The notes under the pieces: generated by a model | What the model saw: only the letters and a program-made list of their open reading frames with translations | Database searches by the model: none | Told to the model about the DNA's origin: nothing | Virus record (IMG/VR): IMGVR_UViG_649989947_000010 | Location: 1-47,812 of that record | Reading direction: 5' to 3' (one strand) | Length of the DNA stretch: 47,812 nucleotides | From: a virus | Taxonomy: Duplodnaviria > Heunggongvirae > Uroviricota > Caudoviricetes | Program-made: the position numbers and the translations under genes | Part shown: positions 26,082-47,102 of the stretch, one piece after another | How the letters are laid out: every line of letters begins with the position of its first letter | Numbering within the stretch: the first letter of the stretch is position 1

Positions 26082-26605
26082 CGGTCAATGGGGCCATCGA
26101 CTGGCTTAACCGCGCTTCTTATTTTTTCACACTTGATCCATCGCCAGACAATATGCGGCGCGTTGGTCGTGGCCGCCGTCGCCGTGGTGTTTGTTATTGC
26201 ATGGCACTACCCGATGTTAAAGAACGTGAAGTCAGGGATGGCGTTCTGTGCTTCCGTCGTGTGGCTGAACGCGGCACGGAGCCAAAAAATACGAATTCTC
26301 CCGAGTGGTGGGCGTGGCGCTGGTCCGCTCATTTCGGCCTTTGCGAAGATGAGAATGAAATTGCCAGCGGCAATAGTGCATATGGTGCTCTGAACCTGGC
26401 TTTCCATATCGGATTCAAACATGTAGCCCTGGTGGGCGTTGACGCTACGCAAGAACCACGCGTTCACTCCGGCGGCACGCCAAAAAATCTAAGTCACCTG
26501 CCTTTGTTATTCCAGTCTGCGCGTGAACAGATTGACGTTGTTTCATGCGGGAAAATGGGAGGTATTCCGCAGATGACTCTTAAAGAATGGCTGAAGAATA
26601 CATGA
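25979..26605 (+). CDS. GSGPS-motif Rossmann-like protein, paralog B
   Basis: [10 protein letters not shown]...IIAVNG...VALVGVDAT; overlaps paralog A by 103 nt. Confidence 0.45.
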
Positions 26606-27279
26606 TGGCACCCACAATTTATCACCGTATCGACGGTACCAAATACAGGAATGTCTGGGTTGTTGGTGATCTGCATGGTTGCTACACCAGACTGATGTCC
26701 GAACTCCATCGTGTGGATTTTGACCCGGCGCAGGATTTACTGATATCGGTCGGCGACCTTATCGATCGCGGTACTGAAAATGTCGAATGTCTGGAACTAT
26801 TGCAGATGCCCTGGTTCAGGGCAGTGATGGGGAACCATGAGCGGTTGATGCTCGATGCGTTAAGTCCTGATGGCAACGTGAATAACTGGCTAATGAATGG
26901 TGGACAATGGTTCTTCATGTTGGACACTGATCAGGAAATATTAGCCAGGGCGCTGGTGGAGCTGGTAAGACGTCTGCCCTATATCATTGAGTTGAACACC
27001 GGGCAAGAAACTATCGTTATAGCCCATGCCGACTATCCGGATAATGAATATCAATTCGGTAAGGAGGTGCCGCTTTTCAACGTTGTCTGGGCGCGCGAGC
27101 GTATCAGTGATTCGATGGATGATATTGGTGGCGAAATTTCGGGCGCAGATCGTTTTATCTTTGGTCACACTCCGGTGAAAAGCCCGAAGACATTCTGGAA
27201 TCAGCATTATATCGACACTGGTGCCGTATTTTGCGGAAACCTGACATTGATCAAAGTGAAAGGTGATGGTGCAGCATGA
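26587..27279 (+). CDS. ppp: Ser/Thr protein phosphatase (lambda-phosphatase-like metallophosphoesterase)
   Basis: GDLHG, GDLIDRG, GNHE motifs; near-colinear with recalled lambda PPase; alternative starts at 26602/26605. Confidence 0.85.
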
Positions 27280-27977
27280 AGATTGCTTTAGTTCTTCGCT
27301 CTGGTGGTGACTATAACGCTTCCGATGTGCAGTGGCTGGTTAATCAACTGCCAAAAGGCTATGAAATTATTTGCCTGACAGACCTGAAGCGTTTACATGT
27401 ACCTGGCGTCAAAGTTATCCCATTGATCAACCAGTGGCAAAAGTGCCGTGGCTGGTGGGCGAAAATCGAGTTGTTCCGACCGGATATAACCGATGATCTG
27501 TTCTATCTGGATTTGGACACGGTTATTGCCGGTGATATACGCCCAATCCTTGAGAATCCACCAACCAGCTTCACCATGCTTAGGGATTTTTACCATCCAC
27601 AATATCGTGGTAGCGGTGCCCTGTGGATACCAAATAGTGTAAAAGCGCATATCTGGAGTGCATTCTGGCAAGATCCGGAAGGTTGGATTGCTCGTTGTGT
27701 TACTACTGAATGCTGGGGTGATCAGGGGTTTTTGCGGAAGGTTATGGGTGATGATACACCAGCATTTCAGGATCTGTATCCAGGATGGTTTGTAAGTTAC
27801 AAGGCCGATGTTGTGGAACCTGGTTCAAAATATGCGAGCGCGCGTTACTCCAGGGGGAATGGGACATTACCAAAGGACTGCCGAATAATCTTTTTCCACG
27901 GCAAACCGCGGCCTCGCGAAGTGTCAGAGGATTGGCTTCCCCTCATTAGCTCGTTTTTTGAGCGAGAATCAGAATAA
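27276..27977 (+). CDS. Putative GT-A-type glycosyltransferase (DxD motif)
   Basis: FYLDLDTVI DxD-like motif; start overlaps ppp stop. Confidence 0.4.
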
Positions 27978-27978
27978 T

Positions 27979-27995
27979 ATTGCTCTAATAATTCC
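27979..27995 (+). promoter_or_regulatory. C1 operator-like site (ATTGCTCTAATAATTCC)
   Basis: 14/17 to consensus; immediately after the GT-A-like gene stop. Confidence 0.55.
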
Positions 27996-28002
27996 ATATT
28001 TT

Positions 28003-28034
28003 TAAAACGTGATGTACACTCATCACGTTTTTTA
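28003..28034. terminator. Bidirectional rho-independent terminator
   Basis: AAAACGTGATG-TACACT-CATCACGTTTTTT. Confidence 0.65.
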
Positions 28035-28044
28035 TTAGAGCAAT
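28028..28044 (-). promoter_or_regulatory. C1 operator-like site, inverted relative to 27979
   Basis: Plus strand TTTTTTATTAGAGCAAT, 15/17 to reverse consensus. Confidence 0.55.
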
Positions 28045-28058
28045 CCATAAGGTGCACT

Positions 28059-28277
28059 ATGTGGCCATTCCGACGGAAATATCACTACTGGCTGATCGCC
28101 TTTGTTACGCCGACCGGCGGTATCAGGCATGTCATCACCAGGTATCGCAACAAGAGACTCACCTTAGCCAGAATTTTACAGGCTGCCATAGGTGAGGGAC
28201 TGGATACAAATTGCGTAGTCCTTCCTCCTTCATACTTAGGAAAAATGACCGAAGCACAAGCTAATACGGAACTTTGA
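28059..28277 (+). CDS. Small hypothetical protein (72 aa)
   Basis: ORF between operator pair and the 420-aa gene. Confidence 0.35.
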   Translation: MWPFRRKYHYWLIAFVTPTGGIRHVITRYRNKRLTLARILQAAIGEGLDTNCVVLPPSYLGKMTEAQANTEL

Positions 28278-28278
28278 A

Positions 28279-29541
28279 ATGAGCACTTCAGCACAAAACC
28301 AATCAATCGAAAATGTATCTATCCCTGATGTCCTGAATGCCGGTATCCCGGCCATTATCCAGAACATCCGGGCCGCGCAACGCCGCGTTAGTTGTGATGA
28401 CCTCACAGCACGTTTTTTTGATAATGCGGTTCAGTCAGCGGAGATGCTTCACGCACAGCTTATTGATGTTTATAACGCAGAAGCTGATAGCCATAACTCC
28501 CTGGTAGATGCAGCTGAAAATATGCAGTTGGATCTCGGTCTGAAGGGTAAAGAAATTGAAGAGCTTCATCTGCAAATTGAACATTTGAAACGCCAGCAAC
28601 AGGACGCGATCGACGATGCGACGCATGACGCCAACCAGCGTGCTGATAATGCCGAACGTATAAGCATTGAGCTGGAAACAAAACTCAATGAAATGACCGC
28701 GATGGTTGAACTGCGGAACTCACAGATTTCAACGCTAAAATCTCAATATAAAGAGATCATGAAACTTGATCCTTTTAACCTTGAGAAACGCTATAACAAA
28801 GCTAAAAGCGAGCGACAGGAACTGCGTAAGCAGGTCGCCGACCTTAACCAACAGCTCAAAAAAACTATTAAAGATGCAAGCGAGGCGCGCGTGGCATTTG
28901 CTAATAAAAAAGCAGAGGTTACCGCGCTGGTTAATGAGAATGCCAAATTTGCGACGCTCAAGAAGGAAATGTATGGCATTACTGAGCGCCGTTTCCCTGC
29001 AAGCAAACTCCATCCGACGTTAGGGCAAATCTCATTCTTCCCGCGCCTCCTGGCTTATGGGATCTCATCGCCTAAAGAGTTCAATAACGAGCGTCCTTAT
29101 ATCGTTTCTAAGCTGGACTTTGCTTATCAGTTCTGCTGCGACATGGGCTATGCCATTGATATCCGTATCAACGAATGGTTGATGCCAAACTTCCAGCCGT
29201 TGGCAATTTTCCGCGAGTTCCAGCCGGAAGGTTGGGTAGAGTTCTTCCATGAATTGATCTGTAAAGAGATGGAAAGCCGCCGCCCGGAATTGGTCCGTCG
29301 AGTTGAGTGGGCGCAAGAGGTTATGTTGGCAGATGCAGAGCTGCCGTTCGAACCGGAATTCATTGATGATCTGGCAACTAAAGGGTTGCATACCCTGTTT
29401 GATGTGGTTACCCGCCGTCATGAGCAGTTGGTTGTCGAATTGGGTTTAGAGGAAACAGCGGCAAGAAGACTTCTCGATGTTTGCTATGCACGTAGCGATG
29501 CATGGGAAAAAGAGAACGGCGGCACTATTTACGTTCGCTGA
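28279..29541 (+). CDS. Coiled-coil protein with uncharacterised C-terminal domain (420 aa)
   Basis: Long heptad-like charged N-terminal region (residues ~90-220), then a ~200-aa globular domain; no recognised motif. Confidence 0.5.
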   Translation: MSTSAQNQSIENVSIPDVLNAGIPAIIQNIRAAQRRVSCDDLTARFFDNAVQSAEMLHAQLIDVYNAEADSHNSLVDAAENMQLDLGLKGKEIEELHLQIEHLKRQQQDAIDDATHDANQRADNAERISIELETKLNEMTAMVELRNSQISTLKSQYKEIMKLDPFNLEKRYNKAKSERQELRKQVADLNQQLKKTIKDASEARVAFANKKAEVTALVNENAKFATLKKEMYGITERRFPASKLHPTLGQISFFPRLLAYGISSPKEFNNERPYIVSKLDFAYQFCCDMGYAIDIRINEWLMPNFQPLAIFREFQPEGWVEFFHELICKEMESRRPELVRRVEWAQEVMLADAELPFEPEFIDDLATKGLHTLFDVVTRRHEQLVVELGLEETAARRLLDVCYARSDAWEKENGGTIYVR

Positions 29542-29560: not shown

Positions 29561-29596
29561 AATGCTGGTGGAGTGCGCCCACCAGCATTTTTTTCG
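29561..29596 (+). terminator. Rho-independent terminator (11-bp perfect stem)
   Basis: AATGCTGGTGG-AGTGCGC-CCACCAGCATT followed by TTTTTTCG. Confidence 0.75.
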
Positions 29597-29613: not shown

Positions 29614-30120
29614 TTGAGTATTTTCAATAAACACGCACACCAGGAACGTCCGTACATCGTCATAGTAGATATTGATGGGACGATATCAGAGGCAACGGAA
29701 GACAGGCTGCATTTACTTCCACCACCTGGCAAAGGTGCATTAACAGAGCACTGGAACGAGTTTAACCTTGCCTGTGACACTGATGCTCCCATCACTCCAG
29801 TTATTGATATGGTGCGCCAGTTGTCCGGCATTTACACCCTCTGGTTTGTAACCGGGCGCTGTGAGATAGCCAGGGATAAAACACGAGCCTGGTTGCGTAA
29901 GCACGTAACAAACGGGGCTGAGCCTTTGCTATCTATGCGTCCTGCTACCGATGATAGAAATGACGGCCCAGCAAAGATTGATCTCCTTAAGAAAATTGGT
30001 CTAAGTAAAATCGCGTTCGCGCTGGAAGATAAGATTGAAGTGGCGCGTGTTTTCAGGAGTCACGGCGTACTTACGTTAATGGTCAGGGAGTATGAAAACG
30101 CGCTTCTCCATCAACAATAA
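29614..30120 (+). CDS. HAD-superfamily phosphatase/nucleotidase-like protein
   Basis: TTG start with strong RBS GAGGAGGG; VIVDIDGT (DxDGT) nucleophile motif. Confidence 0.55.
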   Translation: MSIFNKHAHQERPYIVIVDIDGTISEATEDRLHLLPPPGKGALTEHWNEFNLACDTDAPITPVIDMVRQLSGIYTLWFVTGRCEIARDKTRAWLRKHVTNGAEPLLSMRPATDDRNDGPAKIDLLKKIGLSKIAFALEDKIEVARVFRSHGVLTLMVREYENALLHQQ

Positions 30121-30136
30121 TTGCTCTAATAAATCT
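30120..30136 (+). promoter_or_regulatory. C1 operator-like site (ATTGCTCTAATAAATCT)
   Basis: 16/17; overlaps the stop of the HAD-like gene. Confidence 0.65.
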
Positions 30137-30218
30137 TGATTTTTAAAACAGAGAAAGTGAAAATAAAAACATGCCGCAAGGCGCGGCATGTATCCAATCA
30201 ATCACAGGAGCTGAAAAT

Positions 30219-30314: not shown

Positions 30315-31043
30315 ATGAAAGGCGAAGTGAAAGAGCGCGGCATGATTTTCAACGATGAGATGGTCCGGGCCATCATCGAAGGAAGGAAAACGCAGACGCG
30401 GCGGATAATGAAAAATCAGCCTGCGGAAGTTGGTCCAGAAGCACCAGTGATGGTTAGAAAAATTGGTGCAGGTTTTCAGTGGTACGGGGCTGATGGTGTA
30501 AGCAGTGTCTTCAATTGCCCCTTTGGTATCGTCGGCGATCGAATTTGGGTTCGTGAAACATGGGCGATATTAGGCAATGAGGATGGTTGTAGTGTGGACT
30601 GGAACGACAACCTTTGTCGTGGTGATGAGAAGAACGCAGCAAGGATTTATCGGGCCAGTTGTGAGCAAAAGCCTGGTGATTACGGCTTATGGTCGATACC
30701 CGATGATGCCGACTGGAAACCTCACACTGTGAATGAAAAGTTTGATGGTGGGTGGCGTCCATCAATTCACATGCCGCGATGGGCATCACGCATTCTGTTG
30801 GAAATTACCAACGTGCGCGTTGAGCGGTTGAACGATATCAGCGAATGCGATGCAGGGGCTGAGGGCGTTCCGCCTGCTGGAAGTTTGCTTCCTGATTACC
30901 CGGAAACATTCCTTACTCCCAAGGGGGATTTCGCAATGGCCAAGGTTGCGTTCCAGCGTCTGTGGGAATCCATCTATGGTGAAGAAAGCTGGAACGCTAA
31001 TCCCTGGGTATGGGTAATTGAGTTTAAGCGCATTCAGGAATAA
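30315..31043 (+). CDS. Phage protein, possibly ASCH/PUA-like
   Basis: N-terminus MIFNDEMVRAIIEGRKTQTRR resembles ASCH GxKxxExR-type motif; weak. Confidence 0.35.
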   Translation: MKGEVKERGMIFNDEMVRAIIEGRKTQTRRIMKNQPAEVGPEAPVMVRKIGAGFQWYGADGVSSVFNCPFGIVGDRIWVRETWAILGNEDGCSVDWNDNLCRGDEKNAARIYRASCEQKPGDYGLWSIPDDADWKPHTVNEKFDGGWRPSIHMPRWASRILLEITNVRVERLNDISECDAGAEGVPPAGSLLPDYPETFLTPKGDFAMAKVAFQRLWESIYGEESWNANPWVWVIEFKRIQE

Positions 31044-31052
31044 ACCGTGAGT

Positions 31053-31232
31053 ATGCATCAAGTCGTCAGCTTTTCAGGTGACGGGATTGCCAGAATGTAT
31101 GCCGACAGCGACTACAGAAATTTGTATCAGGCGATGGTGCAGGCCAAGCGGTTTGATACTGGTTCGTGTTCCGAATCATGTGAAATCTGGGGTGACCAAT
31201 TGGAGTTGAAATTCGAAGAGGTTGTGGCATGA
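31053..31232 (+). CDS. Small hypothetical protein
   Basis: ORF in tightly packed operon. Confidence 0.3.
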   Translation: MHQVVSFSGDGIARMYADSDYRNLYQAMVQAKRFDTGSCSESCEIWGDQLELKFEEVVA

Positions 31233-31432
31233 CAATCGTAAAAACCCATACCGGTACCGTGATCACCAAAGATGGCCCGCAGGTAAAAAAACTGCACCAA
31301 ACAGAGCGGATGTGGGTCGTTGGCAAAAACGAGTTTTACCACAAAGAAACTGGACGCCGCCATTTTGCAGAAAATACGCGCCGCCGACTGCTGTTAGACA
31401 CCATCAAGCCTATCGAGGTGAAGCATGTTTAA
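31229..31432 (+). CDS. Small hypothetical protein
   Basis: ORF with overlapping stop/start to neighbours. Confidence 0.3.
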   Translation: MTIVKTHTGTVITKDGPQVKKLHQTERMWVVGKNEFYHKETGRRHFAENTRRRLLLDTIKPIEVKHV

Positions 31433-31664
31433 ACAGAACGAAAAAGCTATCGCTCAAATTGCTGATTATATCCCGCGTGCGTGCCGGGGTATGCAGTTGC
31501 AGGAAGCCAAAGCGCGCCTGGAGAAAAAAATTGCGCTCTATATTGATGACGGCTGTGATGCCGCCGTTCTTAACGAGGCGTTCGCACCAGCTCTTAACAG
31601 TCATACTCGGGAGTCCTTTCTTTCGTGCATCGCAGCGCAACTCCACCAAGGAGGCATCCAGTGA
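31425..31664 (+). CDS. Small hypothetical protein
   Basis: ORF with GTGA overlap to next gene. Confidence 0.3.
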   Translation: MFKQNEKAIAQIADYIPRACRGMQLQEAKARLEKKIALYIDDGCDAAVLNEAFAPALNSHTRESFLSCIAAQLHQGGIQ

Positions 31665-32305
31665 GTAACCGTTTTTACATGATGTGCTTGCGTGAAACTG
31701 TGGGTAATAACGCCTCATTCCATTGCCATAACGGCAATGGTTACAGTTCTGATATCGATCGCGCTCATGTTTACACGCTGGAAGAAGCCCAAAAAGCCTG
31801 GAATTGTGGGCGAGATATCGATCAGCCTGTTTGTGCCGATAGTGTGGATGCAATTGCTGTGTGGCACGTTGATTGCCAGTACATCCCTACAGAAAGCCTG
31901 ATTGAGTCAGATTGCACTGCGTATGTGGCCTACAAAAAAGGTAGCTGGAACGGCAACGATGTTTACTGGCTTCAACACGGTGGATTGCCAACAGATGATT
32001 TCAGTAAAGCGACCATCTTTAGCGTCGCCAACAAAAACGAACCAGGAATAGTTTGGTTGCCATTTCCCATTGCTGATGCAGCAAAGCGCCGGACGTTCAA
32101 TATCAATAACTTTAACCGCAGAACAATGGTTCAGGGCGCAGGTTTGGTCATGCCTGACTGGTTGAAAGAGCAGAACAGAAGAAAGAAGTCGCGAAGCGGG
32201 AAGGTGCGTTGGAATTGTCCGCATTGCGGAAAAATCACCTGGCAGTACAGCCCATATGATTTTGAAGGCTGTAGTGATTACAACTGTGAAGGATGGCGAG
32301 AATGA
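31661..32305 (+). CDS. Cys-rich hypothetical protein
   Basis: GTG start at 31661 with RBS AAGGAGG; C-terminal CPHCG...C..C cluster. Confidence 0.4.
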   Translation: MSNRFYMMCLRETVGNNASFHCHNGNGYSSDIDRAHVYTLEEAQKAWNCGRDIDQPVCADSVDAIAVWHVDCQYIPTESLIESDCTAYVAYKKGSWNGNDVYWLQHGGLPTDDFSKATIFSVANKNEPGIVWLPFPIADAAKRRTFNINNFNRRTMVQGAGLVMPDWLKEQNRRKKSRSGKVRWNCPHCGKITWQYSPYDFEGCSDYNCEGWRE

Positions 32306-32985
32306 CAATTGACTATCAGGTACTGCGCGAGGCGGCGGAACAGGCAACGCAAGATGAATGGGTAGCATATATTTTGCCGGGGCAAAACGGCACTTATCCT
32401 GCGCATACGTCTGAGGGTAGGCATTGCGGATACTTTATTGACTGGCCTGGCATTGATGGACAGAGAAACGCTGGTGCCAATGCCCGTTATATCGCGGCTA
32501 TCCCACCCAAAGTTGTGCTGGCTCTACTGGATGAAATTAAGCGCCTGGAGGACACAAATATTGATGCTATGTGTCGAATTGCAGAGCTTGAGACTAATCT
32601 CGCGGCGCTGGTGGCGGAGAATGTGGGGCTAAAGGCGATATGTGATGACCGTCGCAGGTTCATCATGAATGGGGTGCAGATGGGTTATATCAAGGTGCCA
32701 GCAGCGGAAACAGATCCAGACCTTGAGACAATTCGCATTGCTATATCACCACAAAAGCCCATTCCAGCCACTGATGCTTTCCTGTCTGAAGTGCGGGCGC
32801 AGGGGGTGGATGCTGCTATAGAAGCTGCAAAAAATCTGGTGGTCCAAGAATATGAGTATAAGGATTTCAAAGCGGCGCAGAGTGATTGCTGTATGCACCC
32901 TGGTTCAGACCTGGTAGGGAAGGTTGAAATGACTGAGTGGTTAGTTGACTTTGCTGCCCAGCTTCGCAAAGGAGGCAACCAGTGA
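32293..32985 (+). CDS. Ea22-like early protein, paralog 1
   Basis: N-terminus DYQVLREAAEQATQDEW shared with next gene (DHQALREAAEQAMHDDW). Confidence 0.45.
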   Translation: MARMTIDYQVLREAAEQATQDEWVAYILPGQNGTYPAHTSEGRHCGYFIDWPGIDGQRNAGANARYIAAIPPKVVLALLDEIKRLEDTNIDAMCRIAELETNLAALVAENVGLKAICDDRRRFIMNGVQMGYIKVPAAETDPDLETIRIAISPQKPIPATDAFLSEVRAQGVDAAIEAAKNLVVQEYEYKDFKAAQSDCCMHPGSDLVGKVEMTEWLVDFAAQLRKGGNQ

Positions 32986-33557
32986 GCAAAATTGACCATC
33001 AGGCACTGCGTGAGGCGGCAGAGCAGGCAATGCATGACGACTGGGGATTTGACGCGGACCTTTTCCATGAGCTGGTAACACCATCGATTGTGCTGGAACT
33101 GCTGGATGAACAGGAAAGAAACCAGCAATACATCAAACGTCGCGACCAGGAGAACGAGGATATTGCGCTAACGGTAGGGAAACTGTTAATCGAAAACGGT
33201 CAGCTTGTTGCCGATACGCTACGCCACTTAGCTGATAACGAAATCGACTCTGATTATTTTGCTATCACCTCAACGAATGAGAACGGTACTGAAATTGATC
33301 ATGAGATGGCTATTACCGATTACGCACTGCAAGCTGCCGGAACTGTAGACGAATTGGTTGCAGCGCTGGAATCCGCAGAGAAGCGCATAGCAGAACTGTC
33401 TGCTAGCCACAGCAAATTGCGCGACACAATGGCTGGCATCCACAACACAATCCGAATGGATGGCGGATATACGCCACTGACAGCAATCCTTAACGCTGCT
33501 AAACGCGCATATGAAGAATCAGCAAGCGCAGCTGGCATTCGCATCAAAGGAGAGTGA
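32982..33557 (+). CDS. Ea22-like early protein, paralog 2
   Basis: Shared N-terminal motif; coiled-coil middle. Confidence 0.45.
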   Translation: MSKIDHQALREAAEQAMHDDWGFDADLFHELVTPSIVLELLDEQERNQQYIKRRDQENEDIALTVGKLLIENGQLVADTLRHLADNEIDSDYFAITSTNENGTEIDHEMAITDYALQAAGTVDELVAALESAEKRIAELSASHSKLRDTMAGIHNTIRMDGGYTPLTAILNAAKRAYEESASAAGIRIKGE

Positions 33558-33558
33558 T

Positions 33559-34074
33559 ATGGCGTTAACACACCGCGAACTCTGTCAGATTGCGTACAAG
33601 TTCCTTAAGCGCAACGGGTTCAAGGTTTGTTTTCATGACCGCTTTATAGCTGTAACCAGTACCGGAGAACAGCCAGATGCTATGGGATTCAGAAATTCAG
33701 CATCATGCCTGATAGAGGCGAAATGTTCTCGTGCTGACTTGTTGGCAGATAGAAAAAAGCGTTTTCGTAAAAATCCGTCTCTTGGAATGGGAGACTGGCG
33801 ATTCTTTATTAGTGAGCCGGGAATTATTTCAATTGAGGATTTACCACCTGGCTGGGGATTACTTCACGTTGTTAACGGAAGAGTACGGAAAGTACATGGG
33901 TGGCCCAAGGGTAATTGCTGTTGGGGTAATCCTGACGATAAGCCATTTACTGGAAATAAGCAGGTTGAATGCGATTACATGTTATCTGCATTAAGGCGCA
34001 TGGAGTTGAGAGGGCACCTTAATGAAATATATGACGGTGTAATTGTTAATAAGAAAGAAGGAAACGCGGCATGA
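33559..34074 (+). CDS. Putative PD-(D/E)xK-fold nuclease
   Basis: QPDAMGF ... CLIEAKCSRADL gives PD...(E)AK arrangement; RBS AAGGAGAG. Confidence 0.35.
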   Translation: MALTHRELCQIAYKFLKRNGFKVCFHDRFIAVTSTGEQPDAMGFRNSASCLIEAKCSRADLLADRKKRFRKNPSLGMGDWRFFISEPGIISIEDLPPGWGLLHVVNGRVRKVHGWPKGNCCWGNPDDKPFTGNKQVECDYMLSALRRMELRGHLNEIYDGVIVNKKEGNAA

Positions 34075-34478
34075 ACACTTTCACCGACAAAGAATTGATT
34101 AAAGAAATCAAAGAACGTATAGGCAGCCTGGACGTGCGAGACAATATTGAGCGCCGTGCTTATGAAATAGCGTTAGCCTCGCTGGAAGCTGAACCGGTGG
34201 CATGGCAGGTCACAATCACAAAAGACGGCCTGGACTCAGCCTCTATTATTTACCGTGACTGTGCAGAGAAAGATACATGGGTTCGGATACATGAGACACT
34301 TGGTTCTGTCGTACATGTCACCCCGCTTTACATGGCGTCGCCAGTGCCTGTAGTGCCGGAAGAAAAAACAATGCCTAATCCTCTTAGCATGTACGCGGTT
34401 GATGCTGTTGCCGCTATTGCAGAGGTAAGAGGCTGGAATGCCTGCCGCGCGGCTATGCTTCATGGGAAAGGAAAGTGA
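34071..34478 (+). CDS. Hypothetical protein sharing N-terminal module with 34911 gene
   Basis: YEIALASLEAEPVAW vs YKIALASLEAEPVAY in the 423-aa protein. Confidence 0.4.
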   Translation: MNTFTDKELIKEIKERIGSLDVRDNIERRAYEIALASLEAEPVAWQVTITKDGLDSASIIYRDCAEKDTWVRIHETLGSVVHVTPLYMASPVPVVPEEKTMPNPLSMYAVDAVAAIAEVRGWNACRAAMLHGKGK

Positions 34479-34479
34479 T

Positions 34480-34701
34480 ATGGCTAACTCATTACTTGAA
34501 ACCTGCAACAACTGGCAGATTCAGAGGGCGGAGATTTTATCTCGCAATCCAGATATGGCAATGACAATTGATAATCTGGACACGCTAATTGAACGGACCG
34601 TGCGTTCTGCAATTGATATAGCACATCGAGTGGATTGGGATTTCAGAGAAGCGGAGCGGCTTGCTAAAGAGCAGGAGAAAGCAGCGGGTAAAGGAGACTG
34701 A
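34480..34701 (+). CDS. Small hypothetical protein
   Basis: ATG at 34480 overlapping upstream stop. Confidence 0.3.
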   Translation: MANSLLETCNNWQIQRAEILSRNPDMAMTIDNLDTLIERTVRSAIDIAHRVDWDFREAERLAKEQEKAAGKGD

Positions 34702-34702
34702 T

Positions 34703-34900
34703 ATGGATAAAAACACCACTGCTTACTGGAATCTGTCACTTGATACCGAATGCCCAAAATGCGGTCACAATTTCGATCTGCTTTGTGATCCAGATTTCTG
34801 GGAATTTTCTGGAGCAAAACAGGCATGTGAAGAAATAAAAGGTTACGAAACATGCTGTCCAGAATGTAACCATGAATTTAAAACAGATTTTGTGTATTGA
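34703..34900 (+). CDS. Small zinc-ribbon protein
   Basis: CPKCGH ... CCPECNH. Confidence 0.35.
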   Translation: MDKNTTAYWNLSLDTECPKCGHNFDLLCDPDFWEFSGAKQACEEIKGYETCCPECNHEFKTDFVY

Positions 34901-34910
34901 GGCATAACGA

Positions 34911-36182
34911 ATGACCACTTTTACTAAAGAACAATTAATAGAGATGATTAAGCGCAATATAACGATTATGGATCGTTATCCTGATTTAGTAACTGCACAA
35001 ATGGATCTGGAAGTATACAAAATTGCGCTGGCATCACTGGAAGCAGAACCAGTTGCTTATATTTTCAAACATCCGGCCGGGAAATTATTCTGGGCTTTAA
35101 CGGATGAAAGCAATAAAGAGCAAGCGGACGTTATTCCTGTTTATGCTGCCGCGCCTGCGTCGGTTGTGCCGGATAATGCATCAGAGCCTCTTGCTTATGC
35201 TTACAAAGAGCTTACGCCTGAGATTATGCGCAACCATTTAGCTGTATTCGAGCGATATGGAATAGCCCCAAACGATAGCTCTACCACAATTCAGGCACTG
35301 CGAATCGCGCTGGATGGTATAGAGCGGAGCGACGCCATGCTTCAGTCCGGAAACTTTCGGGAAAACAAGAATTCGTCAACCAATAATTTTCGGGAAATCG
35401 CGGAAACGTCAACCAACTATCCGGTAATTCCTAGTGAGGTGTTGTCCGCAATCCTGAAGGTTGCCAAGATTCGTGCCGATTTCGATGATTTTGACGGTGA
35501 CAGGCGAGGTATCGATGATTGTCTGGATGAGGCTGAGCAAGAGCTTATCGTTACCATTAACAAATATGCCAGTCAGTTGGCAGCAGAACCGATAGCGACT
35601 AATGACGTTCGAGAGCAAACAGCCGTTCCGCCAGTTCCGGTAATACAGGCTGATGTCGCGCAGGCAATTGAAAAACTCAAACGGAAATTAGTGGAATGCA
35701 ATCGCTATAACTACTGCGCAGATGCAGTTAAAGGCGTTGAGGATGCCTGCCGTGCTGTTAGCTATAGCCATGCCGACAATCAACCAGCATCTGGCAACCA
35801 GGCAGCCGAATCCAATCGCGGTAATGAGTGGACCGGCAATCCTGATATTGATAACGCCATCATCATGCTCGATCGCATAGATACGCTGGAAAGTTGCGAT
35901 GATGACCGTATTGAGGCTGTTAAGGCTGTTTTGCGTAGACTAGCTGGCAACTCTCCGGTAACTCCGGATGGTTGGATAAGCTGTAGTGAGCGAATGCCGG
36001 ATACCAAAACAGCCGTTCTTGTTGCCGTGGAGTTTGACAGGAAAGGTGACTGGCGAATGAAATGGGCTACTTACATCCCGGGGCATCCTGACGCTAATGA
36101 TGGGTGGATAATTCCTGGTGCGTCGTGGAAACCGTCACACTGGATGCCGCTACCAGAACCGCCGCAGGAGGTGAATCAATGA
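34911..36182 (+). CDS. Hypothetical protein (423 aa) with Ea22-like N-terminal module
   Basis: Shared N-terminal motif with 34071 gene; no recognised catalytic motif. Confidence 0.45.
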   Translation: MTTFTKEQLIEMIKRNITIMDRYPDLVTAQMDLEVYKIALASLEAEPVAYIFKHPAGKLFWALTDESNKEQADVIPVYAAAPASVVPDNASEPLAYAYKELTPEIMRNHLAVFERYGIAPNDSSTTIQALRIALDGIERSDAMLQSGNFRENKNSSTNNFREIAETSTNYPVIPSEVLSAILKVAKIRADFDDFDGDRRGIDDCLDEAEQELIVTINKYASQLAAEPIATNDVREQTAVPPVPVIQADVAQAIEKLKRKLVECNRYNYCADAVKGVEDACRAVSYSHADNQPASGNQAAESNRGNEWTGNPDIDNAIIMLDRIDTLESCDDDRIEAVKAVLRRLAGNSPVTPDGWISCSERMPDTKTAVLVAVEFDRKGDWRMKWATYIPGHPDANDGWIIPGASWKPSHWMPLPEPPQEVNQ

Positions 36183-36262
36183 GCTGGCCTGAAGCATTCA
36201 CCACGGTAGGAATTGTGATGGCGGCAGCACTGGGTTTGTATTCAATTTGTCGCTGGTGGTAA
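36179..36262 (+). CDS. 27-aa hydrophobic peptide, translationally coupled (ATGA overlap)
   Basis: MSWPEAFTTVGIVMAAALGLYSICRWW; RBS GGAGGTG; not in ORF track. Confidence 0.4.
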   Translation: MSWPEAFTTVGIVMAAALGLYSICRWW

Positions 36263-36264
36263 CG

Positions 36265-36498
36265 ATGGGAAAAATAACTTTTGTAGTCGAATTTGAGGAT
36301 GGTAAAGAGCCACCTGTTAGCGCCAATCTTGATGTTGCTGGTGGCAGGCTTGTTTCGGTTCTATTTGGTGACTACCGAGATGATTTCTTCCAACCAGAAG
36401 AAGTTGATGTGGTGCGAGAGGCATTAAACGAGTTAAGTGTTGATAACGATGATGCTCATGCGGAAATCATCCAAAAAATGGAGCTGCTAACTCACTAA
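36265..36498 (+). CDS. Small acidic hypothetical protein
   Basis: ORF 36247..36498 trimmed to internal ATG. Confidence 0.3.
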   Translation: MGKITFVVEFEDGKEPPVSANLDVAGGRLVSVLFGDYRDDFFQPEEVDVVREALNELSVDNDDAHAEIIQKMELLTH

Positions 36499-36546
36499 AT
36501 TATCAATTATGGTGCTATCACCTACGACACCGAGAGAAAATTTATA

Positions 36547-36669
36547 ATGTCAAAAGTAAATGTTTTGATTTTTTCAGCAATTGTTGGCTTTGGTTTTACT
36601 GCCGGAGTGCAGATTTATATTACGTGGGAAAAAATCATCAACTACGCATGGAGTTGTTTTATTAAGTGA
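36547..36669 (+). CDS. 40-aa hydrophobic peptide
   Basis: MSKVNVLIFSAIVGFGFTAGVQIYITWEKIINYAWSCFIK; weak RBS. Confidence 0.3.
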   Translation: MSKVNVLIFSAIVGFGFTAGVQIYITWEKIINYAWSCFIK

Positions 36670-36676
36670 GGTAAGT

Positions 36677-36970
36677 ATGTGGAGAGGTAATAGTCATGGC
36701 AAAAGCCAGATGATACTTACCGAATATCAGCTCGACCACAAAACCAATAAATCACGTTCAGTATATTTGCTTCGCCACAATAGCCGCGTAAGGAATACCG
36801 TACTGGAGCAAAATCTGACCGTTGAAATGGATAATTACGGGGGCTTCAAGCCAACAATATCGCTTGATGATTTTCCTCGTGGTTTAAGCGAAAGAGAAGC
36901 AATGCTGAAATTAGCAGAATGGCTACAAAGATTAAGCATTGCTATTGAAGATAACTGGTCTGAACCTTAA
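36677..36970 (+). CDS. Small hypothetical protein
   Basis: ATG at 36677 with RBS GAGGTAAG. Confidence 0.35.
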   Translation: MWRGNSHGKSQMILTEYQLDHKTNKSRSVYLLRHNSRVRNTVLEQNLTVEMDNYGGFKPTISLDDFPRGLSEREAMLKLAEWLQRLSIAIEDNWSEP

Positions 36971-36976
36971 ATTAAT

Positions 36977-37351
36977 ATGATGACACTAAAACATTTTCTT
37001 GACCGCCCATTATGGGCGGCAGCCGCAGGCTATGACTTTAATTATATGGATTGCATGTCTTATACTGCCAATGCATACGACCATTCGTTCAGCCTGCTGT
37101 TTAATTCTTTAAGAATATTGCCGGAAACAGAAGTTGGAGAGCTTCATTTATGGATATTGGGCTTTATCGCGGCTGTCGTTGGTATTGCTGTATGGCCTTT
37201 TATTTTCTGGCTGGTGGCTGTTGTAGTGTGGTTTAAGTGCAAGACATACCGGAGAAAGTATTTCTTAGGTGATGGAATGACTGATATTGCCAAAATGAAC
37301 ATTGAAAAATGGACTAAGGAATGTGAAAAGAAATGGCGCAAAAAGAAATGA
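36977..37351 (+). CDS. Membrane protein (124 aa)
   Basis: Hydrophobic stretch LWILGFIAAVVGIAVWPFIFWLVAVVVWF, basic C-terminus. Confidence 0.4.
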   Translation: MMTLKHFLDRPLWAAAAGYDFNYMDCMSYTANAYDHSFSLLFNSLRILPETEVGELHLWILGFIAAVVGIAVWPFIFWLVAVVVWFKCKTYRRKYFLGDGMTDIAKMNIEKWTKECEKKWRKKK

Positions 37352-38271
37352 CCAGAATCACTGAAGAGCGTATATCAGAGATTATTTCCCGTATCGAAAT
37401 GTATGGTCACGGTGCTGGATATACGGCAGATGAAGTATTGGCACTTGCCCAAATGGCTTTGGCGGCTTGCAAAGATGATAAAAAAATGAAGCTTATCGAC
37501 TTGTTAGTGAAGGAGCTGCCTAAGTGCGGCGGGTGGCCTGATGGAATGAGTTATTGTTACCTACCCAGTGTCAATTTAATGGCACCATGCGCGACTTTTG
37601 CTTTTGGCTCAGACCACAAAAAAGACACTTTCTTTGGGCGCAATTTTTGTTGTGAGATTGAGCTTCCAATTGGTGACCTTGATAGCGATGAATACCAGTC
37701 AGTTGTCACTCGCGAACAATACGAATCAGCTCTCATAGCGTCGCAGAAAGTCGAGTTCAATGGTGATGAACCTGAAAGTAAGACTTACAGGTTGGATTTT
37801 GGGCAATGGCTGGAACAGCAACGCGGAAAGATCGATGTGGACTGTGGTTGTGTGTCCACTGAAACATTCATGCACTGGCTGCGGGTAGCTTACGAGGCTG
37901 GCAACTATCCGGATATTCCGGATAGTTCGGTGTCAGCGCCAGGAAAGGGCGTCACCGGTGGACGTATCCGCATTAAGCCGCATGTTTATCGCGAACTGGT
38001 TAACCGTCTCCACGATACAGCGATCAAGTGTGCTGGCACCCAGCAATTACGAGAAAGAATTAGCCGTGTTTTGGGCGACGTTATTACGCCAGATCATCAT
38101 AAACAAGCCGAGAAAAGTGGCTTGGAAAGGTGTCACCTTGAGGCGGCATTAAACATTAAGCCGGGGCATACGCTTGGCATTATTGATGCACTATTGGTTC
38201 ATAAGATGGCCAGGGCTTTATTGCCGCTGGTGGCTGAAAAGCATGAGGCGGACCATGCCAACGAAAGCTGA
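37333..38271 (+). CDS. Hypothetical protein (312 aa)
   Basis: ORF in operon; no recognised domain. Confidence 0.4.
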   Translation: MAQKEMTRITEERISEIISRIEMYGHGAGYTADEVLALAQMALAACKDDKKMKLIDLLVKELPKCGGWPDGMSYCYLPSVNLMAPCATFAFGSDHKKDTFFGRNFCCEIELPIGDLDSDEYQSVVTREQYESALIASQKVEFNGDEPESKTYRLDFGQWLEQQRGKIDVDCGCVSTETFMHWLRVAYEAGNYPDIPDSSVSAPGKGVTGGRIRIKPHVYRELVNRLHDTAIKCAGTQQLRERISRVLGDVITPDHHKQAEKSGLERCHLEAALNIKPGHTLGIIDALLVHKMARALLPLVAEKHEADHANES

Positions 38272-38539
38272 GTTACAGGCGCGCATAGAGATTCTTGAAA
38301 AAGAGAATGCGAGTCTAAAAGGAATGCTGGCGCGGGCGGAAAGGGAATTATCAGGCAAATTATTGCCAGAAGAGCTGCCACCAGCAGATATACCTGATCG
38401 AGTGTCCTGGTGGATGAAGTATTTCCGTGCACCGTGGGAGGCGTTTTGGTGCTACGACCATCGCAGATGGTGTGATGAGCTTGATAGCAGTTTCCCCTAT
38501 TTTGCGGAAGGGAACTCTTGCCCTGAATGTAGGAGTTAA
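38255..38539 (+). CDS. Small protein with C-terminal W-x-DELD-x-SFPYF ... CPxC module, paralog 1
   Basis: RWCDELDSSFPYFAEGNSCPECRS; paralog of next gene. Confidence 0.4.
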   Translation: MPTKAELQARIEILEKENASLKGMLARAERELSGKLLPEELPPADIPDRVSWWMKYFRAPWEAFWCYDHRRWCDELDSSFPYFAEGNSCPECRS

Positions 38540-38844
38540 TGATGACCGGCGAGCTTTATTTTAAAATGGCACGGGAGCGGCGTGTGCATCTGGATCGGAT
38601 ATTTCATCTCCAGAAGAGAGTAGAAGAACTGGAACGTCGTCTGAACTGTTATCCTGTTGATATGGTGTCTGCAATACCGCCGATTCCAATAGAAATGCAG
38701 ATCCGCCTATGGATGGAAGAATATGGAATGCCGTGGGAGATATTTTTCTGCTTCGACCATAAACAGTGGGTAGATGAGCTGGATAATAGTTTCCCATATT
38801 TCACAGAGAACACATGCCCAGTATGCAGGAAGAACGGAATATGA
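38539..38844 (+). CDS. Small protein with C-terminal W-x-DELD-x-SFPYF ... CPxC module, paralog 2
   Basis: QWVDELDNSFPYFTENTCPVCRK; TAATG overlap with paralog 1. Confidence 0.4.
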   Translation: MMTGELYFKMARERRVHLDRIFHLQKRVEELERRLNCYPVDMVSAIPPIPIEMQIRLWMEEYGMPWEIFFCFDHKQWVDELDNSFPYFTENTCPVCRKNGI

Positions 38845-39365
38845 CAAAATTTGGAAAGCTGGAAGCTCATTTGCTAACTCGTAACTACCGCCATGATATA
38901 CACCCATATAGACAGTGGATCGATGAAAGCGAAGGAGTAGTTACATTCCCTCTATACAGGTTTGATGGGATGTTGGCTGGGTATCAGACATATAGACCAG
39001 GTGCTCATAAGCAGCATAGCAATCCGAAGATGGCCCGGTATTTCACGCGATCACACGGCAGACAGTTACTTTGGGGAACCTATCTTCCTTTAAAAGATGG
39101 CCCAATATGGATAACTGAGTCTATTTTTAAGAGCGCAGCTGTACACAACGCGGGCGGCAATTCGTGGGCGCTGTTAGGTTCGACTTTCTCCGCAGGATTA
39201 CGCCGTCAACTTGCGATGCTGCCGTATGACTTTCGTGTAATAGGTGACAATGATGCGGCTGGTGAATTACTTGTGAAGTCTTTCGGAAAAGGTTTTGTGG
39301 CCCCGGATCTTGACGAGCTACAACCACATGAAGTGTCTCATTTGATTTTTAGCCATAGCCAATAA
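38841..39365 (+). CDS. Small Toprim-domain protein
   Basis: IWITESIFKSAAV (conserved Glu) and VIGDNDAAG (DxD) in Toprim order; ATGA overlap with upstream gene. Confidence 0.4.
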   Translation: MTKFGKLEAHLLTRNYRHDIHPYRQWIDESEGVVTFPLYRFDGMLAGYQTYRPGAHKQHSNPKMARYFTRSHGRQLLWGTYLPLKDGPIWITESIFKSAAVHNAGGNSWALLGSTFSAGLRRQLAMLPYDFRVIGDNDAAGELLVKSFGKGFVAPDLDELQPHEVSHLIFSHSQ

Positions 39366-39487
39366 GCATCTCTCCCCTTTGAGGCCACAACTAGTGGCCT
39401 TAAACAATTTGTTTTCTACGTTTTCTTATTTGAGAAAATCACGTTGTTGGCAGCTCATAGGCTCGTTGTTATACATGGCTGTATAGA

Positions 39488-39844
39488 TTATGAGCGTAAA
39501 TTATTAGCGGATTTTAAGCCATATTCACCGTTGTAGAAATTACTCATGTTCCATTCATTGGGAAGCTCTTTTCTGTCCAATGTATAGTGGCGCACGATAT
39601 AACGATCTTCATCTTCTTCGATGGACAGGCGGACATAGCCAATGTGAATTACCGATACGGGCGGCGTCCGTATTGCATAGATATCGCGGAGATATACCGG
39701 TAGCTCGACAAATGCATCAGGTGCATCTGTGATGCTCATTTTTTCACAGTATTCATATAACGCATCGTTGATATCGTTAAGAGATTCATGATCGTATATT
39801 TCCAGGTAATTACCGCGATCGCGATGGTACTCGATTTTAGCCAT
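39488..39844 (-). CDS. Hypothetical protein (118 aa)
   Basis: Second gene of short leftward operon divergent from humD. Confidence 0.4.
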   Translation of the reverse strand: MAKIEYHRDRGNYLEIYDHESLNDINDALYEYCEKMSITDAPDAFVELPVYLRDIYAIRTPPVSVIHIGYVRLSIEEDEDRYIVRHYTLDRKELPNEWNMSNFYNGEYGLKSANNLRS

Positions 39845-40429
39845 TCAAAATCCTCTGTTATCGTTTTGCATTTCTCTAATCCGGTTCAGAACTACTTCGT
39901 GCTGGGCTTGGATAGCGGCTTTTTCGTTTTCAAGCCGGGCAATAGACATCTCTAATTCTTTGCTGTACCAGGCGAGCTGGGCCATGTTCATCCGGTTGTG
40001 GTCGAGAGTTGGAGACACTTCGACGCGCTCCCTTTCTTCCTGCTTTAATGAGAAGAGATTCATCTCATCCCTTGAGGAAAATTCAGCAACAATTTCTTGT
40101 TGATGATCCGGTCGCTGCGGCATCCTCGCCAGTATAAATGGCGGTTCTTTTGAAAACATGAATGTCGGCTGTGACCGTGTTTTCACCCATCTAGCCTGCT
40201 GTCTTTCGGCAAGTTCACAGGCTTCATCATAGTTATTTGCCAAACCAAGCACGGATGGACGGTCCCACGCGCCACCATTCAGACAATAAACAACAATTTT
40301 CCCGTCATGTTCTGTAACCCCATAGGGATGGTCCCACCAGGCGTCCAGCTGAGCTTTAGAGCGTTTCTCGTTAGGAGTGCAGTCAAAATTTTTGGGCAAT
40401 ACAGGATCGAGAGGAATGCGATTAGGCAT
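39845..40429 (-). CDS. Hypothetical protein (194 aa)
   Basis: First gene of leftward operon. Confidence 0.4.
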   Translation of the reverse strand: MPNRIPLDPVLPKNFDCTPNEKRSKAQLDAWWDHPYGVTEHDGKIVVYCLNGGAWDRPSVLGLANNYDEACELAERQQARWVKTRSQPTFMFSKEPPFILARMPQRPDHQQEIVAEFSSRDEMNLFSLKQEERERVEVSPTLDHNRMNMAQLAWYSKELEMSIARLENEKAAIQAQHEVVLNRIREMQNDNRGF

Positions 40430-40566
40430 AGCTAATTCCTTATTAACTGATTGGCAACGAGGTTACGCTGATCCGTTGGTGATGAATAGTAGCAAAGAGC
40501 ACAAAATCATCAGCGGTGGTTGATGTACGTAACGCGTTTGCACCAAAGGTGTCTCTTTAATGTATA

Positions 40567-40582
40567 CTGTATAAATGAACAG
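40567..40582 (+). promoter_or_regulatory. LexA (SOS) box CTGTATAAATGAACAG upstream of humD
   Basis: Perfect CTGT-N8-ACAG palindrome about 20 nt upstream of humD start. Confidence 0.8.
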
Positions 40583-40603
40583 TATTATTGAGGTGAAAAC
40601 GCT

Positions 40604-40993
40604 ATGGGCTTCCCTTCTCCTGCGGCGGATTATGTTGAAAGCCGAATTTCTCTTGATCAGCAACTAATCAGGCATCCATCAGCAACCTACTTCATGCGGG
40701 CAGCTGATAGCCATCACCGTGAGGGAATATTGCAGGGTGCTTTGCTGGTGGTTGATTCCTCGCTTACTCCGGTTGATGGTTCTCTGCTTGTGTGCGCTAT
40801 GGAGGGTGAATATCGCATAAAGAGATACAGGAAGTATCCGCGCCAGCACCTGGAGGATTTAAGCACCGGGAAGAAAGAGGCGTTACCAGTAGATGACGAT
40901 GGATGCACGGGCAGTAATGCTGTTTTTGGTGTGATCACTCATGTCATCAATGATGCCCGAAGTGGGGAATTTGATGATTGTCCGGTCATTTAA
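40604..40993 (+). CDS. humD: UmuD-like SOS mutagenesis protein homolog
   Basis: 129-aa S24-type UmuD-like protein downstream of the LexA box; sequence as recalled for P1 HumD. Confidence 0.75.
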   Translation: MGFPSPAADYVESRISLDQQLIRHPSATYFMRAADSHHREGILQGALLVVDSSLTPVDGSLLVCAMEGEYRIKRYRKYPRQHLEDLSTGKKEALPVDDDGCTGSNAVFGVITHVINDARSGEFDDCPVI

Positions 40994-41065
40994 GCTGCAA
41001 AGTGCTGGTGCTTTATGCCTGTGAAGTTTATAATTGTGTACACATAACGAGTACACGAGGTGTTT

Positions 41066-41667: not shown

Positions 41668-41671
41668 ATTA

Positions 41672-41851: not shown

Positions 41852-41878
41852 AGCCCAATCAGTGATGAAAGGTGTGAT

Positions 41879-46250: not shown

Positions 46251-47102
46251 CTATTGCGCGCTTTCGGGGTTGTCGTTTACTGGCTGCCCCTTCTTCGTTT
46301 TACGGCTGCGCGTAACTGATGCGGCTGATTTGACCTTTTTCTCTTCGCGAGTGATGGCAATTTGTTTTTTTACATTTTCAATATCTGCCAGGCGATATAT
46401 TTTTGCCTGCGGCCAGCGGTCGCAGATGATCGGTTCTATAGAGTCATAAAGGCTAAATTTTGCTTTCTCGAATTCACCGTTGATGATGATTCCATCACGG
46501 AGAGTTTCATCGCAGATAAACACACCACATAGCGGCACATGGTAACTAACTGATTTACCATCATTGTAGTTAGGGCTACTGGAAATGTAATGGACGCGCA
46601 GCATTGTTTCGCTAAAGCCGTGTACGCGCATACGGAATTTTTCATCCTCCGGGTACTGCTTCATTAGCTCTTTTGTTGCTTCCAGGTTCTCTATGTATTT
46701 CGCACTGTGCTCATTGATCCCCGCGCTTTTTTGGATGCGAATGTCCTTATCAATCAGATGAATAATGCGGCCAGCGGTCATATTGACGCTGTTCACTGCT
46801 TCTGTCTGATAAGTTGTAACCTTACGCACACCGCGAAGGATGTTAGGCACTGGATATAAAATAGTCTTTGGGATATTGAGGTCTGGGTACTGTTCCAGTT
46901 CCCGCGCCATTAAAGTCCATTTATCAATTTCAGCCTGAATGCTGTCCGTTTCTTTGAACGGCAGAACGACAACCGGGCGTACAGGACGACCGTCGCTGGC
47001 GGCATCAACGTGTTGGGCGCGTGCAACAGCTTTTTTTAGAAAGAGATCCCTGAAGCTGACGAACTCCTGGTACAGTTGTTCGCCGTAGACATAATTTATC
47101 AT
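46251..47102 (-). CDS. c1: C1 repressor of lytic functions
   Basis: 283 aa; matching operators occur throughout the window; as recalled for P1 C1. Confidence 0.85.
   Translation of the reverse strand: MINYVYGEQLYQEFVSFRDLFLKKAVARAQHVDAASDGRPVRPVVVLPFKETDSIQAEIDKWTLMARELEQYPDLNIPKTILYPVPNILRGVRKVTTYQTEAVNSVNMTAGRIIHLIDKDIRIQKSAGINEHSAKYIENLEATKELMKQYPEDEKFRMRVHGFSETMLRVHYISSSPNYNDGKSVSYHVPLCGVFICDETLRDGIIINGEFEKAKFSLYDSIEPIICDRWPQAKIYRLADIENVKKQIAITREEKKVKSAASVTRSRKTKKGQPVNDNPESAQ

Follow-up and report, generated by a model that had tools for sequence, protein, structure and literature searches.

We consider it moderately probable that the 81-bp intergenic region between pmgQ and pmgR of a P1-type phage-plasmid holds a + strand terminator that would close the pmgN-pmgQ operon and would be interleaved with a C1-repressed promoter starting inside the terminator hairpin, the U-tract being shared with the C1 operator Op86b. 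The observations behind this reading are that the operators can be identified, that c1 is present, that the unit is conserved, and that the hairpin shows covariation and a strand bias. The DNA analysed, hereafter the window, is the whole stretch of 47,812 nucleotides, and across the kilobase around the Op86 unit it is 98% identical to P1, P7, SJ46 and RCS47. The operators and the promoter that they control are already known, the GenBank records of P1 and P7 having listed them for two decades; what we add is the covariation evidence for a + strand hairpin, a T6 run that would be both U-tract and operator end, and a predicted transcription start inside the hairpin.

The intergenic region lies between two + strand ORFs. 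It had been described as the junction between a glycosyltransferase/phosphatase operon and the next cassette, and the unit indeed sits between the ppp/pmgQ operon and pmgR-pmgS. Upstream, pmgQ is the last gene of the C1-controlled operon pmgN-pmgO-pmgP-ppp-pmgQ, which has its own operator, Oppp, and the pmgQ stop codon TAA (27975-27977) ends 1 nt ahead of the first operator of the unit. In a Pfam scan the Ppp ORF (26587-27279) matches Metallophos, a metallophosphatase family, and PmgQ has no match, its glycosyltransferase name coming from the RefSeq annotation only. The upstream operon is itself C1-repressed, and what would be gained from a terminator at the junction is not obvious. Downstream, pmgR and pmgS (28059..29541) form, according to the P1/P7 annotation, a two-gene unit under the Op86 operators, followed by a hairpin with an 11-bp stem (29561-29589) and then T7; pmgR is essential by a reported deletion analysis, as cited in PMC10695390. 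The genes and signals around the junction are as follows.

27276..27977, + strand: pmgQ (hdmD in P7), from the ORF list and the P1/P7 annotation.
28049..28054, + strand: Shine-Dalgarno-like AAGGTG, 4 nt before the pmgR ATG, read from the sequence.
28059-28277, + strand: pmgR (shtA in P7), ORF and P1/P7 annotation.
28279-29541, + strand: pmgS, ORF and P1/P7 annotation.
29561..29596, + strand: strong terminator-like hairpin with T7 closing pmgR-pmgS, from a terminator scan, -17.7 kcal/mol.
46251..47102, - strand: c1 repressor gene, whose product is identical to P1 C1.100 at 282 of 283 positions.

Between the two genes, the unit itself is made of four elements that partly overlap.

27979..27995, + strand: Op86a (OpmgRa), ATTGCTCTAATAATTCC, identical to P1 protein_bind 82152-82168.
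28004..28031, + strand: hairpin AAAACGTGATG-TACACT-CATCACGTTTT, 11-bp stem and 6-nt loop, the putative stem-loop of a + strand intrinsic terminator.
28028..28033, + strand: T6 run, the putative terminator U-tract, which is positions 12-17 of Op86b on the opposite strand.
28028..28044, - strand: Op86b (OpmgRb), ATTGCTCTAATAAAAAA on the - strand and TTTTTTATTAGAGCAAT on the + strand, identical to P1 protein_bind 82201-82217.

The asymmetric 17-bp C1 operator has the consensus ATTGCTCTAATAAATTT, and 22 operators are scattered over P1 according to PMC8546580. Op86a and Op86b each match this consensus at 14 of 17 positions, and the 13-nt core is exact in both. When we searched the window for the 13-mer core ATTGCTCTAATAA with at most one mismatch, we found eight copies where 0.06 were expected, and the 17-mer consensus with at most three mismatches gave 11 copies against an expectation of 0.19. 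The P1 record AF234172 annotates the first site as OpmgRa, a monovalent C1-controlled operator, formerly Op86a, that controls the expression of pmgR and pmgS, and the second as OpmgRb, formerly Op86b; in the P7 record AF503408 the two sites bear the names Op(sht[a]) and Op(sht[b]). The complete 66-mer is identical in the window and in these two records, at the same position (pmgQ/hdmD-pmgR/shtA) and with the sites in the same orientation. No sequence difference separates the records from the present reading, but they carry no terminator label and do not mention that the T-run and Op86b overlap. Judged by the consensus match, by orthology to the named P1 and P7 sites and by the c1 gene on the same element, the two 17-mers are C1 operators, inverted relative to each other and already annotated in P1 and P7. 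On this point the preliminary description was right, and its sequences and coordinates for the two operators (27979-27995 and 28028-28044) and for the hairpin (28004-28031) were exact. C1 would be expected to bind both sites in vivo. DNA looping between them was also considered; their 49 bp from centre to centre (4.7 helical turns) are short for it and out of phase.

From the pmgQ side, the gap reads ATTGCTCTAATAATTCC (27979-95), ATATTTTT (27996-28003), AAAACGTGATG (28004-14), TACACT (28015-20), CATCACGTTTT (28021-31), the T-run to 28033, TTTTTTATTAGAGCAAT (28028-44) and CCATAAGGTGCACT, after which comes the ATG. A repeat search returned a perfect outer inverted repeat (13/13; 27979-91 and 28032-44) and a perfect inner one (11/11), the latter being the hairpin arms. 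The two are not concentric. An 8-nt spacer (27996-28003) occurs on the left only and the right operator overlaps the 3′ arm of the hairpin by 4 nt, and therefore the centres of symmetry lie 6 bp apart, at 28011.5 for the outer repeat and 28017.5 for the inner one. Since, in addition, the symmetry takes in no more than 13 of the 17 positions of the operators, the earlier view of the whole 66-bp unit as one large palindrome had to be abandoned.

The hairpin has a core of 8 bp, ACGTGATG/CATCACGT (28007-14 and 28021-28), with four G-C pairs. As RNA it folds at -13.4 kcal/mol, equally on both strands (z = -5.1; none of 200 shuffles was as stable), the core stem alone accounting for -10.2 kcal/mol and the A-U extension bringing the value to -13.4. 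It starts 27 nt past the pmgQ stop and shares its strand with every gene nearby, and the tract after the stem is U6AUU. The flanking A and T runs mentioned in the preliminary description are present in the window sequence (A4 at 28004-07, T6 at 28028-33), and across about 140 loci the hairpin is conserved and the T6 invariant, with T7 in two of them. A simple terminator scan did not call the hairpin at 28004-28031, a technical effect, because the maximal stem absorbs four T's of the T-run. With E-values up to 10, Rfam returned only a meaningless 16-bit match to a mitochondrial 5S-like family, and a search of the literature turned up neither Term-seq nor 3′ RACE results on P1. In summary, the site combines a stem-loop with a U-tract, a sense-strand place past the last stop codon and, in two lineages, compensatory conservation. 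The compensatory changes, together with a T6 that never varies, make it very probable that the hairpin is a genuine RNA element built like a terminator. Transcripts would end here, and the short core stem (8 bp, four G-C pairs, -10.2 kcal/mol) may make the termination partial.

The preliminary description had proposed to look for the same unit in other P1-like genomes, and it is present in all relatives that we examined. We found it in 19 phage records, in 687 plasmids and in 673 of 5426 complete E. coli genomes (about 12%), as well as in 138 IMG/VR contigs and in 51 metagenome contigs matching the operator-pair pattern. The IMG/VR loci compared come from 80 of the 138 contigs and are near-identical, and the metagenome loci were collected with both operator cores fixed by the search pattern. 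Every inverted operator pair found is a pmgQ-pmgR junction. An unbiased set of 82 loci was collected via PmgS with no requirement on the DNA; among these the Op86a core is intact in all 82 and the Op86b core in 81, the exception (L030) having TGAT for TAAT. The PmgS search of genome contigs returned only two loci, which are 99% identical, and the tblastn matches below 60% identity, in Pseudomonas phages and in Pantoea, Shigella and E. coli plasmids, were at 20-24% and too remote for C1 operators.

The informative relatives (D6-like plasmids and phage JK004), whose flanking genes show a divergence of about 30%, comprise Cronobacter phage JK004, the Salmonella plasmid pCVMN1543, three IMG/VR loci (L088-90) and a metagenome locus (L112). 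All of them have the gene order pmgQ-unit-pmgR-pmgS, with both operator cores, the T6 and a unit of exactly 66 bp; they differ in the spacer, in the loop and in the stretch from Op86b to the start codon, the last also in length. Their stem reads CATGGTG/CACCATG against CGTGATG/CATCACG in the P1-type sequence, which amounts to two compensatory pairs of the G-C<->A-U kind, and JK004 has an additional U·G pair. Across 24 distinct haplotypes 97.7% of the cells were paired, and none of 500 column shuffles reached the observed pairing or covariation score, a covariation that rests on two lineages (P1-type versus D6-like/JK004) and two pairs and probably goes back to one split between lineages. On the + strand, the hairpin of every lineage folds at -13 to -14 kcal/mol. 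The covariation and the steady energy argue for a nucleic-acid hairpin under selection and against a sequence-specific protein site.

The end of the right operator is also conserved. Operator positions 14-17 vary freely among the sites of the window (ATAT, ATTT, TTTT, TTCC, ATCT, ATTG, ATTA, TTCT), and in Op86a they vary among the relatives as well (TTCC, TTTT, TTTC, TTCT, TTCA). In Op86b they are AAAA in every locus of all lineages. The simplest reason would be that the T's on the + strand serve as the U-tract of the terminator.

One alternative supposes that only the operators and the promoter are functional at this junction, and that the hairpin is a 3′ stabiliser or a processing site of the upstream mRNA, or is incidental. 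The stabilising or processing element would possibly be an extended stem that includes the operator arms in read-through RNA, and the fold of 27975-28048 is indeed strong (-26.9 kcal/mol, z = -10.4); the pairing of the outer arms, however, is automatic from the inverted operators. The core stem is modest, as this alternative would have it, but a compensated stem directly before an invariant T6 is the anatomy of a terminator, and a 3′ stabilising hairpin would still require that a 3′ end be made there. The P1 record also has no terminator feature at the hairpin; it has none, however, in the whole 16 kb inspected, even at the obvious hairpin at 29561, and the missing annotation is therefore uninformative. 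We regard this explanation as rather unlikely and keep the + strand terminator as the preferred reading.

The promoter for pmgR-pmgS can be placed in two ways.

27980..28008, + strand: PpmgR, predicted sigma-70 promoter of the P1 record (model A), -35 TTGCTC at 27980-85, 17-nt spacer, -10 TAAAAC at 28003-08.
27993..28020, + strand: candidate alternative promoter proposed in this analysis (model B), -35 TCCATA at 27993-98, 16-nt spacer, -10 TACACT at 28015-20.

The preliminary description overlooked PpmgR, whose -35 is carried by the left half of Op86a. In model A the predicted start is at about 28015-16, in the hairpin loop. The TTGCTC-N17-TAAAAC module of this promoter also occurs at OpmgT, where 26 of the 30 nt of the module are identical to Op86a; its -10 has no T at the sixth position and reads TAAAGC, TGAAAC or TGAAGC in some relatives, some of which have lost the A at the second. 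Model B copies the geometry of Plpa, an annotated sigma-70 promoter, relative to Olpa, in which the -35 begins at operator position 15 and the spacer is 16 nt. Its -10 is the hairpin loop, its predicted start is at about 28027, and its -35 is poor. The loop is TACACT in all of about 130 P1-type loci, with no variant, and TATCAT in all D6-like ones, T1, A2 and T6 of the hexamer being invariant. A consensus promoter scan called neither model (each is at about 7/12 to consensus) because the hexamers are genuinely weak, and a literature search on Op86, OpmgR and pmgR returned nothing on transcript mapping. Op86b would span +13..+29 in model A or +2..+18 in model B, and Op86a would lie over the -35 region; the 66-bp length, invariant among lineages, fits such spacing constraints. 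We infer that one of the two promoters is used, with its start at about the corresponding position. A late promoter was also considered and rejected, as no -22 box (AGTKACTT) occurs near the unit and the window has this box only at 1094 and 39064.

In the arrangement that we favour, the hairpin at 28004-28031 with its T6 would act as a + strand intrinsic terminator ending the pmgN...ppp-pmgQ transcripts, and a sigma-70 promoter for pmgR-pmgS, either PpmgR or one with the loop TACACT as its -10, would be interleaved with it. The start would fall inside the hairpin either way, and the pmgR-pmgS transcripts would lack the 5′ arm; the terminator that their own promoter overlaps could therefore not stop them. 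Two monovalent C1 operators would bracket the RNA polymerase site, Op86a over the -35 and Op86b just past the start, so placed that C1 bound at both would silence pmgR-pmgS in the lysogen. For its U-tract the terminator would draw on the degenerate, A/T-rich 3′ end of Op86b.

The preliminary description went further and had the operators clamp the terminator. Nothing shows C1 acting on termination, and the P1 annotation ties OpmgRa to the expression of pmgR and pmgS and to the -35 of PpmgR. One may still imagine the junction as an insulator tuned by the repressor, in which C1, with the co-repressor Lxc/Bof, would, when bound at Op86b, cover the U-tract and the bases next to it on the downstream side and as a roadblock tighten a modest terminator in the lysogen, whereas after inactivation of C1 the promoter-bound RNA polymerase would take over this role or relax it. 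This is unlikely in our estimation. If it were true, read-through from the ppp operon into pmgR-pmgS would be set by the immunity state, and promoters in general could evade a terminator that they overlap by starting within its hairpin.

The strand on which the hairpin works can be read from its variants. A transition in the stem that leaves a G·U pair in the RNA of one strand leaves A·C in that of its complement, and single-site variants are therefore informative on the strand. Pairing on the + strand is broken in six haplotypes (six loci) and on the - strand in 14 haplotypes (22 loci), and the variants that occur in more than one locus all preserve the + strand stem. This bias is a trend of roughly 10 against 4 inferred events, the loci being related and the independent events few. 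A leftward terminator would have the A-run as its U-tract, and this run varies in the relatives (GAAA, AAAG and GAAG, with G/AAA and AAA/G common). In JK004 the + strand hairpin holds about -14 kcal/mol, and the - strand has only -5.8 kcal/mol and the tail CUUCAAAAAAG, with no U-tract.

Bidirectional intrinsic terminators have a hairpin between an A-tract and a U-tract, with convergent genes on either side. The P1-type sequence resembles them in its A4-hairpin-T6 order and in its equal stability on both strands, but the P1 junction has no convergent genes, and neither the A-tract nor the pairing on the - strand is conserved in relatives. The preliminary description took the unit for a two-way terminator clamped by C1 on both sides; on this model it would insulate two cassettes, and the operators would serve termination and not a promoter. 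The folding energy of -13.4 kcal/mol on each strand, with A4 upstream and T6 downstream, agrees with such a model, as does the fact that a protein just 3′ of a terminator can raise its efficiency (the RNA polymerase of a coupled promoter, or LexA at yobI). We found, however, no leftward gene converging on the unit: the flanking genes are on the + strand for several kb on each side, the nearest - strand gene in P1 is lxr, about 4.6 kb downstream, and the terminator scan placed a separate - strand terminator-like hairpin at 30191-30169. Even in the P1-type sequence the - strand tail is merely U4 followed by A5. Through Oppp the upstream operon is under C1 repression already, which leaves little transcription to clamp in the lysogen, and Op86a holds the -35-like TTGCTC, as do other C1-controlled promoters. 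The one support for bidirectionality is the symmetry of the P1-type sequence itself. With no convergent transcription, a decaying A-run, G·U variants that favour the + strand only and a collapsed - strand hairpin in JK004, we consider the two-way model very unlikely. The preliminary description was thus borne out in calling the hairpin a terminator as far as + strand anatomy, compensation and the invariant T6 go, and not in giving it a two-way function; the word terminator is probably right for the + strand only.

It is highly improbable that the inner palindrome ACGTGATG...CATCACGT is not an RNA structure but DNA to which a dimer binds, be it of another regulator or of an activator of late genes: it is perfect, it lies between -10 and +10 of the promoter, and transcription-factor sites can coincide with terminator palindromes, but its half-site is not conserved, both arms having changed in a compensatory manner in the D6-like relatives, its variants retain G·U pairing, which is meaningless for the recognition of duplex DNA, it has no match to the -22 box of the P1 late promoters, and it is not repeated in the window.

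The + strand terminator interleaved with a promoter recalls the promoter-coupled terminators, in which a terminator and the next tandem promoter share a few tens of bp (Fletcher et al., bioRxiv preprint 10.64898/2026.08.19.745784). In the layout of this class, transcripts end 8-11 bp ahead of the start, the -35 is supplied by the DNA of the stem-loop and the -10 comes after the T-tract; proteins at the coupled promoter can raise termination, and a repressor site may overlap a terminator, as upstream of ruvA, where the LexA site is the palindrome of the yobI terminator (10.64898/2026.08.19.745784). The P1 junction is similar in that a terminator and the next promoter would share DNA and a repressor site overlaps the terminator sequence. 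It differs in that the predicted P1 start is within the hairpin and precedes the point of termination, and in that the P1 repressor sites flank the stem and overlap the T-run only, whereas the LexA site is the stem. After the T-run comes ATTAGAGCAAT, which belongs to Op86b, where the best hexamer, TATTAG, has no T at its sixth position and TGATGT at the -35 position matches at 1/6; unlike the class, the junction thus has no credible -10 after the T-run, its candidates being upstream of the hairpin or inside it. Going by predictions for both, a start at about 28016 or about 28027 and an end of transcripts at about 28033-37 would be no more than 20 bp apart; in the class, up to 35 bp separate the termination site from the same-strand start of the following unit. 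By analogy, then, the junction may work like the promoter-coupled terminators without having the layout that defines the class.

The unit is common but raises no widely important open question. If confirmed, it would be a very compact natural case, 81 bp long, in which two repressor sites use the same bases as a promoter and a terminator, which would bear on the idea of promoter-coupled terminators and would make a useful small part that is both insulating and repressible. We also compared it with other P1 arrangements, namely Olpa/Plpa, OpmgT with P1pmgT/P2pmgT, Oppp downstream of PpmgN, and the bivalent Oc1ab. The other P1 promoters use one operator position singly: OpmgT and Olpa lie over the -35, and Oppp, in the - orientation, lies just past the start. 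The Op86 unit differs from them in having both positions at one promoter, 49 bp apart from centre to centre and with a hairpin between them, an arrangement that is unique in the window.

The C1 operator Op86a, which together with its inverted partner Op86b occupies the pmgQ-pmgR junction, shares with the C1-controlled operator OpmgT an extended 30-nt module (ATTGCTCTAATAA..N..ATTTTTAAAAC), with 26 of 30 positions identical between 27979-28008 and 30120-30149. This likeness in sequence suggests a duplicated operator-promoter cassette. The first ~26 nt of the module are also present at Oc1e (window 47744). The operators and hairpins considered here are the following, in window coordinates:

11434-11461, a pair of overlapping, mutually inverted C1 operators, plus strand ATTGCTCTAATAAATTT and minus strand ATTACACTAATAAATTT
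29561-29596, plus strand, strong terminator-like hairpin, AATGCTGGTGG-AGTGCGC-CCACCAGCATT followed by T7
30120-30136, OpmgT operator
30169-30191, minus strand, leftward terminator-like hairpin, ACATGCCGCG-CCT-TGCGGCATGT followed by TTTTATTTT

The pair at 11434-11461 is a 'bivalent' operator, of the same kind as Oc1ab annotated in P1. Natural variation was found in Op86b: at 2201-2266 of L030 (IMG/VR UViG_2744054872_000006), one of 82 relatives' loci collected through PmgS with no requirement on the DNA, the core carries a TAAT>TGAT substitution (TTATCAGAGCAAT), along with a C>T change in the stem (G·U) and an altered spacer. It is the only locus of this unbiased set with a core substitution in Op86b, and as a natural operator variant it could be used to probe Op86b function.

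The hairpin at 29561-29596 has a folding energy of -17.7 kcal/mol with its T7 and lies 20 nt downstream of the pmgS stop and 18 nt upstream of pap. The P1 record neither annotates this hairpin nor gives pap a promoter behind it. In the pmgT leader, the predicted hairpin at 30169-30191, ~35-70 nt past the OpmgT operator and predicted promoters, would stop antisense transcription arriving from the right.

Upstream of the junction, the preliminary description had called PmgQ (27276-27974) a glycosyltransferase, a name that RefSeq also uses but that found no backing in Pfam, where no match was obtained at E <= 0.01. The repressor gene c1 (46251-47102, minus strand) differs from the P1 c1.100 allele by one residue, with G193 in the window where C1.100 has C193; the window's G193 is presumably the wild-type form of the thermosensitive site. 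Between pmgT and Olpa, the stretch at ~31000-42900, ~7 kb longer than its P1 counterpart, is a mosaic accessory region: P1-like phages match just 50-60% of it, and the remainder resembles lambdoid/Stx-phage sequences (Ea-like genes).
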